IMG/VR virus record: IMGVR_UViG_2695420822_000017
Length of the DNA stretch: 4,891 nt
Strand: one strand, 5' to 3'
From: a virus
Lineage: Duplodnaviria; Heunggongvirae; Uroviricota; Caudoviricetes
Position 1 is the stretch's first letter. Each line of letters opens with the position of its first letter. The position numbers and the translations under genes were made by a program. Below, piece after piece: positions 32 to 4,534 of the stretch. The notes under the pieces were generated by a model, which worked only from the letters and a program-made list of their open reading frames with translations, made no database searches and was not told the origin of the DNA.

Positions 32-568
32 AGCCTTCTTGAGGCTACCACCTGTTTTCAGGTGTCATTCAGACGTGATTTGCCCCAGATTGGGAAAGCA
101 CGCTTTTTTCTCAGCTATCGTCCTCTTATTTTGCCGTTACATTTCTTTTTGCACTCTAATGATTAATTTACAATAATAATATCGGTAATTATTGAGTAAT
201 AATAAATTGATTATTGCAAATGTAATTTAATTCCATCTTCGCGTTATATTCCAATCTTTAATCTCCGCATGGAACAAGTTGCATGCGTGACTATATTAAG
301 ACAACTTATAACCACCAAAACATTTGCTTTGCAAGCAAAAACAGTGACCATTGACTCTAAGAAAATTCCGATCTATTGTTAGGGTCATCAAAGTTACTTA
401 ACAGTATTCCGAAATGAAAATACAAAGCAAGCTAATTGTCTTATTAAACATTATTATTGCATTTATATTATTTGAGCTTTTAGCTCAAAAATTTGGTTTG
501 AGTACATTATTTTAAAGCAAGATAAACAATATCGGGCACTCTAGTTTTTATAATTAACAATTAAACGT

Positions 569-589
569 NNNNNNNNNNNNNNNNNNNNN
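569..589. other. assembly gap (21 N)
   Basis: A run of 21 N is present in the sequence. True length and content are unknown; any feature spanning it is unresolved. Confidence 0.99.
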
Positions 590-690
590 AAACGTCCATA
601 AAATGTTATTTACTTTTCTTCGCTATTGTCATATCTTAATATAGTGGCTTACGCCACTCTACTTTCATCACATTTTGTACGTTTATGTAC

Positions 691-724
691 TCGCCATGAA
701 GCTCTTTCATGGCGATTTTTTATT
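691..724 (+). terminator. rho-independent terminator, plus-strand orientation
   Basis: Perfect 9-bp stem CGCCATGAA (692-700) / TTCATGGCG (706-714) with a 5-nt loop GCTCT, followed by A then TTTTTT (716-721). On the minus strand the hairpin is not followed by a U-tract, so it is oriented to stop transcripts travelling left to right toward tfa and stf. Confidence 0.55.
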
Positions 725-807
725 CTTAATCCAAGAACATACTCCCTACCTATAGCAAAATCACTTTTTTAACAAAAGAATAACGTATTTAGGTAATCAT
801 TACGAAT

Positions 808-1260
808 TTACCCTATAGGTGCTACTGGCCATTCAATATCCGGTGCAGTTGATGTATCAACACGGTTCAGCAACACCCGATACTTTTTCCAGGCTTCCAG
901 CAACAAGGTTTCTTTCTCCGTTGCGATCTCCAGATCCACAGCATCCTGAAGCGGCGCTATATGCTCACTGGCTACCTGCATCAGGCTGTTTTTTGTTTCT
1001 TCCGCCTCCCGGATCCGGAACAGTTTTTCTGCTTCCGTATCCTTCACCCAGGCTGTGCCGTTCCACTTCTGAAACTCCCCTTCCGGGGATAACCAGGTGA
1101 CATTTTCCGGTAATGAGCCGAGTTCAGAAATAAATAACGCGTCGCCGGAAGCCACGTCATAAACCGTTTTACCCCGATGATCTTCAACGAGATGCCACGA
1201 TGTTTGCAGGCAGACCTGTATGAGGCGGAATATATGCGTCACCTTCACCAATAAATTCAT
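808..1260 (-). CDS. tfa: tail fibre assembly protein (Tfa-like), C-terminal reading frame; gene appears frame-disrupted
   Basis: The 150-aa ORF carries [28 protein letters not shown]...[23 protein letters not shown]...[26 protein letters not shown], which matches lambda Tfa as I recall it. Its first ~20 residues ([20 protein letters not shown]) are an out-of-frame reading of the Tfa N-terminal region, so the annotated ATG at 1260 is probably not the native start. It sits directly downstream of stf, as in lambda. Confidence 0.8.
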
Positions 1261-1312
1261 TAGTTCCGGCCAGCAGGTTATAAATTTTTATGGTCCGTGC
1301 TTGTTCACTCAT
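1184..1312 (-). pseudogene. tfa: Tfa N-terminal fragment in a different frame (native tfa start, prematurely terminated)
   Basis: ATG at 1312-1310 lies 11 nt downstream of the stf stop. Translation gives [37 protein letters not shown], matching the lambda Tfa N-terminus from memory, then IVASR and a TGA at 1186-1184. The conserved Tfa sequence resumes in the +1 frame from about position 1200. Confidence 0.6.
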
Positions 1313-1323
1313 TCTGAATGCCA

Positions 1324-4300
1324 TTATGCGAGCCTCACAATATAGTTAAATGCGATGTTTTTGACGGTGTTTTCCGCGTTACCAGCAGCGTTAACGGTGA
1401 TGGTGTGTCCATGTGAACCAATCGCAACAGAGTGCGTATGAGCACCAATACCGACAGTATGCGCGTGTGCACCCGCAGATGCTGCTGTGCCGGACAGTGA
1501 GTGTGTATGGTTTCCTTCTGAAGATGATTTACCTACCCATTGGGAGGTGCCACTGGTTAATGAGCCACTGATACCAACCTGATTAGTCCCGCTAACTTGA
1601 GTACTCCCTGCCGGAAACATTCCAGTAGGTTGACTCCCGCTATTCGTTCTGGGCCCAGTCTGACTATGTTGGTGGGCCCCAGCTGAACTTGTAGAGCCGC
1701 TCAGACTGTGCGTATGCGCCCCGGTGTTATTCGTGGATTTAGTGCCGTAATCAAACGACGATGTGGTTTTCGTCCCCAAATCCGTACTGGATGCGCTGGC
1801 GCTGTGGGTGTGCGATTTAATGCCATCCTGTTCCTGAGACAATACGGCACGACCACTGGCGGGCTTGCCCTTAATCGTCCAGCCACGCATATCAGGGATC
1901 ACGCCTGACGGATAAGCGGCTGCAAGTTTCGGGTAAGCAGATTTGTCAAAAGTCTGCCCCTGCATCAGGGCATAACCAGACGGAACGGTATCTGATGGCC
2001 ACGGGATTGGTGCACCGACTGGATAAAACTCTGCAGGAGGATGAGCCGAGGTGTAAAGCTGCGCCCACGGCGACCAGTTTGCGTCGGTCGTATCCCGTCG
2101 TGAACGAATAAATGCCGGAGCATGAGCACCGCTTGTACCACTCCAGCCGATGAGTAACTCACCTTCGCCAACGGCTGTCATCCCTTTCAGGTGAATGATA
2201 TTTCCATACGCTGTTGGATATCCGTTGTTATACACCTCGTATAACTCAAGACCTGCTGCCCCCTGCGTATTGTCTGTCAGCGCGGCTACCCGACCTTTTG
2301 AAGCCAGATTAACTGATGATACTGCTGTTCCACCTGACGGTAGCGCCCCGATCTCTGATGCCGTTGGCTTATTTCTGGAGTTATAGTCCCTTCGCCAGCC
2401 AGGTGAATAATCTGTTCCGTGATTAATATAGGTAAACTGGGCGTTGGTTGTTCCGCCACCGCTGGATGTGGTCGGAGTGGTAATGCGGATCGTCATCGCT
2501 GACTTTATCCCCATTACTTCAATGACAGCTCCGGCGAGATGAATATTACCGCAGCCAGTATCAGTAATGATTTTATTATTGCCATAAGACCAGGAACCCT
2601 TGCACATCCAGTATGGATGGTTAAATGCTCCCTGAGAATCCAGCCACTCGATAAACTGTGCAGTCGTCCAGTTTCCTGTTGTTGTGCTTACTGACCCACC
2701 GAAGGCACGGCAGGCACCAATATTTTTCGTAAAGGTGTCTTTGCCAGGGATATCCGCACCGTTCTGATCTTTCTGCAGACGTTTCTCAGCATTGTCATTG
2801 GCTGCTTTTACTGCCTTTGGCGTTGCCGCCAGCGTTTCAGACGTGCTGTTGGTCGCGCTGCTTAGCTGGATTATCCCTTTCTGTGCTGTCGTTGCATCCT
2901 GTGCGGTGTATTTCCCGTTAGCCAGGTCATACGCGGCCTTAACGGCTTTTGGTGTTGCCGCCAGTGACTCGGAAGTGCTGTTAGTCGCACTACTGAGCTG
3001 TACTATCCCCTTTTTCGTCGTGCTCGCATCCTCCAGCGCCACGGCGGATGCAATATCCTCTGCCCGTTTTGCCGCTGTCTCAGCGCGCGTTGCTGCAGAT
3101 TCCGCCGTACTTTTGCTCTGAGCTGCTGCCGTCGCACTACCAGCAGCCTCTGTCGCCTTCGTGGATGCCGTCGTGGCGCTGCCCTTCGCTGCTGACGCCT
3201 GTCTGGTCGCCTCATCTTTTGAAGCAGACGCCGATGATGCCGATGACGCCGCCGAACTGGCGGACGATGCGGCAGCCGTTTTTGAGGATTCTGCACGGGT
3301 TTCCGACGCTTTCGCGTTCGTTTCGGATGTCTTCGCTGCGGAAGCTGACCTCGCTGCTGCCGTGGCCTGCTCAGTGGCTTCGCCAGCCTTCGTTGTGGCT
3401 GTTGAAGCGGATGATGCGGCGCTTTCTGCCGATTTTCCGGCGGCGGTGGCACTGGCTGAGGCCTGCCCGGCACTTGTTGACGCGGCACTGGCAGATAATG
3501 CAGCCGCTGTTTTTGAACCTGCCGCAGCTGAGGCGCTCTGTCCCGCTGCTGTTTCAGAAGACTTAGCGTTCGTCTCGGACGTTTTTGCCGCCTTCGCGGA
3601 ATTTCCTGCCGCCGTTGCCGAGGAAGCTGCACTACTGGCACTTGATGATGCATTCGTTTCTGAAGATTTCGCTGCCTCTTTTGAGGCCGCCGCACCCCGT
3701 GCCGAGGTGGCAGCTTCTGACGCCTTCGTGGTCGCTGTGGATGCAGAAGTGGCTGCCGATTTTTGTGATGCTGCGGCATTCGTTTCTGACGTTTTCGCGG
3801 CACTGGCGCTGGTAGCTGCCGCGCTTTTTGATGACTCTGCAGCAGCACTTTTTGCTGCTTCACGGGCCTTTGTCGATGCCGTTCCTGCGCTGGAAGACGC
3901 TGACTGAGCCGACGACGCGGCCTGTCCGGCTGACGTGCTGGCGGCACGTGCTGAGGCTGCAGCATCGGTTGCATGAGTTGCCGCCTCGCTGGCTGATTTT
4001 TTCGCGGCTGCCGTATTCTGTGCAACCGCGGAGGCGTTACGTGACACCTCTTCCACCATCTGCTCAAAGCGGCGCAGTGCCTCCGGTCGGACATCATCCT
4101 CCGTCATGGCACCGAGAAAATCATTCAGCGTACCTGGTCTGGAACCTTCATAGACGGTAATGGTCCCGGCATGTGAAGGCGGAAAACCTTCAACCAGCAG
4201 GGTGACGCTGTACTGACCATGCTCAACATCCATGCTGTAACGTCCGGCTTCATCCGGATTTTCAGAGGCCACCGTGTTCACCACCATCGTGCTGCTGGTT

Positions 4301-4383
4301 CGTCTGGCCTTCAGCACAATGGTGCAGTTCTGTACTGGTTTTCCTGTGCCATCTTTAAGCACGCCAGAAATTTTTACTGTCAT
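1324..4383 (-). CDS. stf: lambdoid side tail fibre protein (Stf-like), 1019 aa
   Basis: Uninterrupted 3060-nt ORF. N-terminus [22 protein letters not shown]...[14 protein letters not shown]...[13 protein letters not shown] and C-terminus ...[49 protein letters not shown] match lambda Stf as I recall it. A long Ala/Ser/Thr-rich shaft (~3064-4026), two tandem fibre repeats and seven HxH motifs near the C-terminus are present. A GGTGGA Shine-Dalgarno-like sequence lies about 5 nt upstream of the ATG. Confidence 0.95.
2767..3012 (-). repeat. tandem ~132-bp direct repeat inside stf encoding two phage tail-fibre repeat units
   Basis: The protein has [27 protein letters not shown]... (codons 458-501, coordinates 2881-3012) immediately followed by [27 protein letters not shown]... 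(from codon 502, coordinate 2880 downward). The same periodicity shows in the antisense frame ([22 protein letters not shown] / [22 protein letters not shown]). Confidence 0.75.
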
Positions 4384-4395
4384 ACTTTTCCACCA

Positions 4396-4430
4396 ATAAA
4401 AAAAGCCCGCAGCAGTGACGCCACGGGCTT
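4396..4430 (-). terminator. rho-independent terminator between lom and stf, minus-strand orientation
   Basis: On the minus strand: AAGCCCG (4430-4424), a 14-nt loop, CGGGCTT (4409-4403), then a T-run (plus-strand A7 at 4398-4404). It lies about 100 nt downstream of the lom stop and ends about 12 nt before the stf start codon. The loop is larger than ideal. Confidence 0.5.
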
Positions 4431-4534
4431 CAGGACAGTGTAACTTTACGTTTCCTCAAACGCAGTTCACCCCATAAGGTGGATGAACCTGCGTATCATA
4501 ACAATATTTACAGAAGATAAATCGGCGTCTGTTG

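Follow-up and report, generated by a model that had tools for sequence, protein, structure and literature searches.

The window, a 4,891-nt stretch of DNA from a virus of the Caudoviricetes (IMG/VR record IMGVR_UViG_2695420822_000017), carries three phage genes on its minus strand and, beyond the stop codon of tfa, a region that extends to the end of an insertion sequence. An earlier note, made from the letters alone, had singled out positions 32–807 as an AT-rich, ORF-poor island, and the borders that it gave, the terminal repeat of IS1 (1–31) on one side and tfa, which lies on the minus strand from 808, on the other, were confirmed. The features of the window are as follows.

1–31, no strand assigned: end of IS1 with its terminal inverted repeat, outside the module
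32–116, no strand assigned: right-hand part of a mosaic segment cut by IS1 (whole segment about 205 bp)
235–807, plus strand: conserved module (the entire cassette), with the tfa stop codon as its right limit and a left limit of about 203–235 depending on lineage
351–379, plus strand: sigma-70 promoter-like site, TTGACT-17 nt-TATTGT, matching the consensus at 9 of 12 positions
414–515, plus strand: 33-codon ORF, YncL-like, with a single hydrophobic stretch; peptide MKIQSKLIVLLNIIIAFILFELLAQKFGLSTLF
569–595, no strand assigned: assembly artefact of 21 N (569–589) and a second copy of AAACGT (590–595), 27 surplus positions in all
643–724, plus strand: conserved 82-nt 3' block, −27.1 kcal/mol, z = −6.5
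691–724, plus strand: intrinsic terminator of the cassette, facing the 3' end of tfa
808–1324, minus strand: tfa, tail fibre assembly (Pfam Caudo_TAP, 2e-44), with its stop codon side at 808
1324–4383, minus strand: stf (Pfam phage_tail_N/Phage_fiber_2/Collar)
4535 onwards, minus strand: lom, partial (Pfam Ail_Lom)

The base composition of the region is as the earlier note described it, with a G+C content of 0.317 across 32–807 and 0.301 across 203–807 compared to 0.541 for tfa and stf (808–4383). It is also correct that neither strand contains an ORF of at least 60 amino acids, the longest one wholly inside 32–807 having 48. The same holds for 64% of first-order Markov sequences of equal composition and length; thus, "ORF-poor" by a 60-aa criterion carries no information, and here the criterion masked a real gene of 33 codons. 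Of three other short ORFs, those at 18–176 and 62–166 span the IS1 junction or the mosaic piece, and a 37-aa ORF at 269–382, which is annotated in phage PhiR70_1, was rejected because its ATG is ACG in most copies.

E. coli TUM9757 contains positions 32–807 at 100% identity, and matches to at least 80% of the region occur in 280 complete genomes, with 99–100% identity among the matches listed. The run of N, which had been suspected of hiding sequence, proved to hide none. Genomes that are 100% identical on both sides read without interruption across the gap (...caattaaacgtccataaaatg..., also given as ...ttaaacgtccata...; the TUM9757 sequence was read directly), and the 776-base query spans 749 bases in the 100%-identical genomes. 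The 100%-identical reference lacks the 27 surplus positions, and so, to judge by their record spans, do the other full-length matches listed. The N run and the duplicated AAACGT are most simply explained as a scaffold join of overlapping contig ends.

In the two records that were examined for its host element, the region lies in a lambda-like prophage at the lambda attachment site, adjoining ybhB and bioA. Three cultured lambdoid phages, ev099, mEp332 and PhiR70_1, carry the entire region, and in each of them the order is tfa, the region, about 750 further non-coding bases, an AraC-family regulator and IS remnants; in ev099 only, int and xis come next after the IS remnants. Because of this gene order, the region is the counterpart of lambda's non-essential "b" arm.

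The left end of the region has a separate history. The same IS1 junction is found in strain 2009C-3133, where the IS1A transposase is annotated, and IS1-free relatives extend leftwards by 551 bp that are missing here and that include a 3' fragment of a tRNA-Ser gene. Judged from these alignments, IS1 came in later, and the adjoining 551 bp on its left were deleted. The mosaic segment of about 205 bp that IS1 cuts recurs at the ends of other lambdoid prophages, and about 500 further genomes match query positions 1–85 only; in the O26 strain RM8426 the segment adjoins uspF in a prophage at the Rac site, and its homology reaches further left in both RM8426 and TUM9757. The late arrival of IS1 bears on the terminator at 691–724, for which insulation against read-in from IS1 had been suggested. 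The terminator is unrelated to IS1, because the cassette is unchanged in phages without the element; it is 94–100% identical in phages and prophages that lack IS1 at this place (TUM9757, ev099, mEp332, PhiR70_1, D6 and sit-linked prophages).

The remainder of the region is a conserved module that was directly downstream of tfa in nine of the nine loci examined. Of 5,426 complete E. coli genomes, 827 contain its ORF segment (934 places) and 827 its 3' block (933 places), and the two parts are therefore inherited together; the location is chromosomal for all 935 places. The left neighbour differs between contexts: at the lambda attachment site it is the AraC-family regulator or IS1, Qin-site prophages have the ydfJ junction there, and in others sitABCD takes this place. 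Other tfa-bearing prophages, such as K-12 Rac, are without the module. Diverged copies are about 76–90% identical overall, the most diverged being that of Sx181 at 76%. The copies all derive from E. coli phages, and the number of independent lineages among them is small. Among GTDB species representatives, a scan for the 3' block gave no match and a scan for the terminator gave one chance match, inside a Rubrivivax transporter gene; at the stringency of these scans the module was not seen beyond E. coli phages. Two scans of viral contigs returned the same set of about 48 E. coli prophage contigs and added little diversity.

The pattern of substitutions clearly points to purifying selection on the 33-codon ORF. 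In the ORF frame the window differs from Sx181 by 11 synonymous and 7 non-synonymous changes (pN/pS 0.16, Nei-Gojobori) and from K-15KW01 by 5 synonymous and 1 non-synonymous change (pN/pS 0.05), compared to pN/pS values of 0.44 to above 5 in the other two frames; these statistics rest on about 25 substitutions in few lineages. The length of the ORF is conserved, and its stop codon survives an adjacent 5-nt deletion in Sx181. If the region were an inert, decaying remnant, that is, junk between tfa and the prophage end with the relic terminator of a lost gene, one could point to the patchwork of fragments that makes up 32–235 beside the IS1 deletion and to the annotations of the matches listed, none of which calls a gene on the module. 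However, the region is 76–100% identical across viable phages and prophages at several integration sites, the substitutions in the ORF are biased to synonymous ones, and even the most diverged copy retains the promoter-like site, the ORF and the terminator. We consider a decaying remnant hardly tenable.

The encoded peptide has a hydrophobic core, LIVLLNIIIAFILFELLA, which together with its length of 33 residues fits a single-pass membrane miniprotein. When three variants of the peptide were compared with 18,950 models, the sole match was NCBIfam YncL (NF000537), with E values of 1e-5 to 8e-5. NF000537 is an equivalog family, "stress response membrane protein", with a curated cut-off of 35 bits; the three variants score 25.0, 23.5 and 22.5 bits, and K-12 YncL scores 68.6 bits. 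Because these scores are below 35 bits, the ORF is not called a YncL equivalog; by its sequence it is a diverged YncL-like paralogue and not YncL itself. Homology to the wider YncL family that goes beyond the composition of a hydrophobic helix is indicated by two further comparisons. BLASTP aligns the peptide with K-12 YncL at 39% identity over 28 residues, ungapped from Met1 (E 2e-7), and the Smith-Waterman score against YncL is 60, a value that none of 20,000 composition-preserving shuffles reached (mean 20.2, sd 4.1), while eight other small hydrophobic proteins gave scores of 18–29. Searches of Pfam, PHROGs and PADLOC gave no match for the peptide, and an exhaustive search of 1.8 billion representative proteins had just two matches, the peptide itself and a frameshift variant of 43 aa. 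The exact peptide is present twice in the protein collection, both times without a name. A literature search found no paper on the peptide, the seed stretch or the terminator sequence, and nothing relevant on morons or small membrane proteins near tfa.

YncL is a 31-residue inner-membrane protein that is induced in E. coli by heat shock and in minimal medium, and its production causes partial depolarisation of the inner membrane and condensation of the nucleoid (PMC12542507). RseP is able to cleave it (PMC10470546). The expression of yncL in Salmonella depends on sigma-S, and the transcript was first catalogued as an "sRNA", STnc1110, with the ORF recognised afterwards (PMC5437024); a short transcript for a gene of this kind thus has a precedent.

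The promoter-like site lies 35 nt upstream of the ATG, which places the predicted start of transcription near 386 and gives a leader of about 28 nt. The same scan recovers the site at the homologous position in GF130 (TTGACT/TATTGT) and in Sx181 (TTGACT/TATCGT), and the −35 hexamer is invariant in the copies aligned. The predicted RNA, which would extend from 386 to about 722 and have a length of about 310 nt once the 27 artefactual positions are left out, folds with z = −3.5 relative to shuffles. None of the lineages aligned has a Shine-Dalgarno sequence before the ATG (ttccgaaATG), whereas K-12 yncL has a good one, AAGGTGG. Leaderless translation is unlikely, as inspection by eye revealed no acceptable −35/−10 pair at the right distance, and the spacing does not suit a sigma-32 promoter, which was considered by analogy with yncL.

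The terminator at 691–724, seen by the earlier note, is strong, with a stem (691–715) of 11 pairs, 5 of them G-C, that is followed by TTTTTT on the plus strand; the hairpin alone has a folding energy of −15 kcal/mol (z = −5.8 against shuffles). The terminator scan calls it on the plus strand alone, both in the window and in the diverged lineages GF130 and Sx181. It is no "orphan", as it had been called, since it belongs to a conserved module with a promoter-like site and a 33-codon ORF. The proposal of a plus-strand transcript that ends here stands in outline, the promoter-like site, ORF and terminator being kept across diverged lineages, but the product envisaged for it, an sRNA or the 3' end of a lost cargo gene, does not stand as stated: the gene is still present, as the YncL-like ORF under purifying selection.

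We favor the interpretation, to which we assign a probability of roughly 60%, that positions from about 235 to 807 are a phage "moron" expressing a YncL-like single-helix membrane miniprotein. The cassette, AT-rich and self-contained, would sit in the non-essential arm of lambda-like phages, between tfa and attP. Its weak sigma-70-type promoter (351–379) would initiate a plus-strand transcript near 386, and this transcript would code for the 33-residue single-helix membrane miniprotein (414–515), which has diverged from its chromosomal paralogue, the stress protein YncL, run on through a 175-nt 3' untranslated region and halt at 691–724, before it could run antisense into tfa. The observations behind this interpretation are the conservation of the module, its linkage to tfa across prophage contexts, the constraint on the ORF, the similarity to YncL and the strand-specific terminator; from them we infer that the promoter is used, that the ORF is translated and that lysogens express it independently of the late operon. 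By analogy with YncL, the miniprotein may act at the membrane as a modulator of host physiology or stress state. A distinct base composition is typical of morons, and the cassette has 30% G+C compared to 54%, is placed between tfa and attP-proximal cargo, and shows a patchy presence (827 of 5,426 genomes). Of the further moron hallmarks, an own promoter and terminator, the terminator is clear and conserved and the putative promoter is a 9-of-12 consensus match kept in three lineages. The window contains a second, classic moron in lom, which has a terminator of its own.

The position of the hairpin suggests a different role, in which the terminator is a boundary element that insulates the tail-fibre/late operon from convergent transcription from the left and the hairpin might protect the 3' end of the tfa mRNA. 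Indeed, the element stays at the tfa border whatever the left-hand cargo, it is the first intrinsic terminator downstream of sitD in the sit-linked prophages, and the minus-strand RNA of the structure is equally stable (z = −7.0). It would end the plus-strand transcript 84 nt short of antisense entry into tfa. However, the minus strand continues after the hairpin as GTACATAAACG, without a T run, and hence the hairpin is not a terminator for tfa. A boundary role would also leave the selected ORF and the conserved promoter-like site unexplained, and insulation is an expected by-product of any moron terminator, so that it complements the moron interpretation more than it competes with it. As the principal function of the locus, we regard it as improbable.

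A larger challenge comes from the 3' block (643–724). It consists of the hairpin AGTGGC-TTAC-GCCACT (643–658), reported earlier and present as described, about 18 single-stranded nucleotides, a weak mini-hairpin, the terminator stem-loop (691–715) and a U tract (716–721), and the candidate RNA stretch within it reads CUCUACUUUCAUCACAUUUUG. The 175 nt between the stop codon and the terminator are long for such a small gene. Relative to Sx181, the block is 94% identical, while the ORF is 80%, the sequence upstream 61–76% and the sequence downstream 67% identical, and the identity of the block is at least 90% in every genome carrying it. Better conservation of the block than of the ORF hints at a second function, and an sRNA role, independent or derived from the 3' end of the mRNA, is possible. 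Such a product could be the main one, with 643–724 acting as an Hfq-type trans-acting sRNA that is processed from the 3' untranslated region or made from a weak promoter of its own. The succession of a 5' hairpin, about 18 unpaired nucleotides, U-rich sequence and a terminator with U5–6 is the known layout of the Hfq-binding module of enterobacterial sRNAs. The substitutions avoid the stems or yield wobble pairs; among ten variants, stem changes give wobble pairs or touch terminal pairs only and all others fall in loops. By eye, a −10-like element, TAnnnT, is kept in all lineages, and a candidate promoter for the block can be assembled from TTTACT (609–614), a 17-nt spacer and TATCTT (632–637), with a start near 643.

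Several observations weigh against an RNA as the main product. The candidate promoter matches the consensus at 8 of 12 positions and is not called by the scan, and a check against Rfam, which the earlier note had recommended, yielded no match in 32–807 even at E = 1. The ten variants contain zero compensatory base-pair changes; covariation is therefore uninformative and speaks neither for nor against the structure. Most of one variant of the block is common to GF130 and Sx181, and recombination at the module borders could, with few lineages, create such an island of conservation. Furthermore, the block was never found without the ORF in the 5,426 genomes, and nothing else in the window is complementary to its single-stranded stretch. 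We therefore view a mainly RNA-based function as a tentative alternative that is less probable than a coding one. The two can coexist, and a dual-function locus, in which one short transcript would yield both the YncL-like miniprotein and, from 643–724, an Hfq-dependent trans-acting sRNA with which lambda-like phages would reprogramme gene expression in about 15% of E. coli strains, seems to us conceivable but rather doubtful.

The size and hydrophobicity of the peptide would also suit the membrane toxin of a type I toxin-antitoxin system, with an antisense or neighbouring sRNA to restrain it. In lacking a Shine-Dalgarno sequence and having long, structured untranslated regions, the transcript would be similar to type I toxin mRNAs, the only minus-strand promoter-like site (632 to 603) is directed antisense at the ORF, and YncL production reduces membrane potential and viability (PMC12542507). 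Yet this site was not recovered at the homologous place in the diverged copies, the region that it would transcribe is the least conserved (61%), and the scan found no minus-strand terminator. A second candidate structure, a terminator-like hairpin at 471–489, lies inside the ORF, and its stem is broken in K-15KW01 and Sx181. The peptide has no toxin-family or PADLOC match and, to our knowledge, YncL has no antitoxin. A conserved antisense or adjacent antitoxin RNA gene, which marks type I systems, was thus not found at the locus, and we judge a toxin-antitoxin function very unlikely.

Compared with YncL (K-12 b4598; Salmonella STM14_1932), the ORF product is of the same size class (both about 31–33 residues) with a single hydrophobic helix, and the two have in common the pattern M-x-[IV]-x-S-[KR]-x-[IV]-V-L-[IL]-N ... 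L-F-x-L-[IL]-x-x-[KR]-F-G. Both would be expressed from a short monocistronic RNA ending at an intrinsic terminator, which for the ORF is a prediction. The ORF is phage-borne and AT-rich whereas yncL is a core chromosomal gene, and its 175-nt 3' region is unrelated to, and much longer than, that of yncL. With the lambdoid morons (lom and bor of lambda; those of HK97 and HK022), the cassette shares the design of an extra gene between modules with its own promoter, here putative, and terminator, as well as a composition unlike its neighbours and a site dispensable for lytic growth. It differs from them in a product far smaller than those of the known lambda morons and in the unusual length and high conservation of its 3' untranslated region. 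The Rac and Qin prophages of K-12 encode YnaM/YnfT (NF041477), which are, like the ORF product, small and hydrophobic and the genes of which lie between tfa and the prophage end, convergent with tfa. However, YnaM has no sequence similarity to the ORF product and matches its own family only, and in K-12 Rac the pin invertase and ynaE lie between tfa and ynaM, unlike the arrangement in the module. As for the 3' block, the 3'UTR-derived Hfq sRNAs CpxQ and SdhX and the prophage sRNA DicF likewise combine a hairpin, a single-stranded stretch and a U-tailed terminator. Prophage sRNAs and the block are alike in their location at the end of a short prophage mRNA, although the block has no Rfam family. 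One case of an sRNA from the 3' UTR of a prophage gene is KilS, from kilR of Rac (PMC8175672).

Annotation systematically overlooks both small membrane proteins and phage morons. The cassette is a case in point, as it is carried by about 15%, or about one in seven, of complete E. coli genomes and by cultured lambdoid phages and is un-annotated in the records inspected; a gene of fewer than 50 codons can lie behind what looks like an "orphan terminator" in an island free of ORFs. If the cassette is expressed, a YncL-type protein would be present in lysogens in a second copy under phage control. Recent work ties YncL to membrane depolarisation, nucleoid condensation and metabolic slowdown (PMC12542507), and an expressed phage copy would offer a plausible prophage route to altered stress tolerance, persistence or sensitivity to membrane-active agents in the host. 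The locus also provides a natural diverged YncL variant for structure-function work and, in its conserved 3' block, a concrete candidate regulatory RNA carried by a phage.

Outside the cassette, three minor observations were made in the window. The lom gene has a terminator at 4431–4402. Rfam matches elsewhere in the window comprise IS009 inside tfa and sub-threshold isrG hits in the stf repeats (E up to 1). Finally, alignment with the intact 193-aa gene of TUM9757 revealed that tfa of the window has a 65-bp deletion between positions 1200 and 1201.

Comparison with IS1-free relatives revealed that the IS1 copy at the left edge of the window (positions 1–31) stands in place of 551 bp of their sequence (compare 5450–6000 in the related stretch L001 with 5233–6000 in a second, L002). 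No target duplication matching this IS1 copy was found in the comparison with these relatives, which, together with the replaced 551 bp, points to an adjacent deletion mediated by IS1. Within the missing 551 bp lies part of a tRNA-Ser gene, a 3′ fragment (L001 5828–5890, minus strand) that is probably a relic attachment site.

The sequence next to the IS1 copy, window positions 32–116, is part of a segment of ~205 bp that is complete in L001 (5880–6086) and in another related stretch, L007 (2880–3086). Many other lambdoid prophages carry this segment at their ends, with 93–100% identity, and it contains a perfect hairpin, CACCTG-TTTT-CAGGTG. In O26 RM8426 it is located beside uspF, immediately beyond three NleG-like (DUF1076) genes, and this piece is found without the YncL-like module, the conserved tfa-linked cassette, in ~500 genomes. 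The segment may be a recombination linker.

In the sit-linked prophages of GF130 (L010 2765–3453) and Sx181 (L009), the module terminator lies ~660 bp downstream of the end of sitD, and a terminator scan detected none between the sitD end and the module terminator. Thus, read-through from sitABCD may cross the YncL-like gene. A connection between prophage RNAs and yncL already exists in the literature: the mRNA of the chromosomal yncL gene is listed among the RIL-seq partners of KilS, which is an sRNA derived from the kilR 3′ UTR of the Rac prophage, and also as a target of RprA (PMC8175672; bioRxiv 10.1101/2025.09.11.675593). K-12 Rac (L063) itself encodes a small hydrophobic protein of the YnaM/YnfT family, YnaM, at 6294–6407, in a position analogous to that of the YncL-like gene, between tfa and the prophage end; the two proteins are unrelated. 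Small membrane proteins may be recurrent cargo at this location.

The tfa gene of the window (808–1324, minus strand) lacks 65 bp between positions 1200 and 1201 compared to the intact 193-residue gene of E. coli TUM9757, and the deletion breaks it into two ORFs of 46 and 150 residues. Either tfa is a pseudogene in the source strain or the deletion is an error of assembly. Matches to RNA families and a further terminator were located in tfa and beyond, as follows.

848–1046, minus strand: IS009 (RF02111), 218 bits, full length, wholly within the tfa coding sequence in sense orientation.
3411–3659 and 3705–3827, plus strand: weak isrG (RF01390) matches, 25.6 and 18.8 bits, in the Ala/Ser-rich repeats of stf.
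4402–4431, minus strand: strong intrinsic terminator, 13 pairs followed by T7, between lom and the stf start.

The IS009 'RNA gene' family seems to correspond to a conserved part of tfa. Both isrG matches score under the gathering score of 100 and most likely arose by chance, owing to the repetitive, G+C-rich sequence. The terminator at 4402–4431 is the classic lom moron terminator, located within the late operon.
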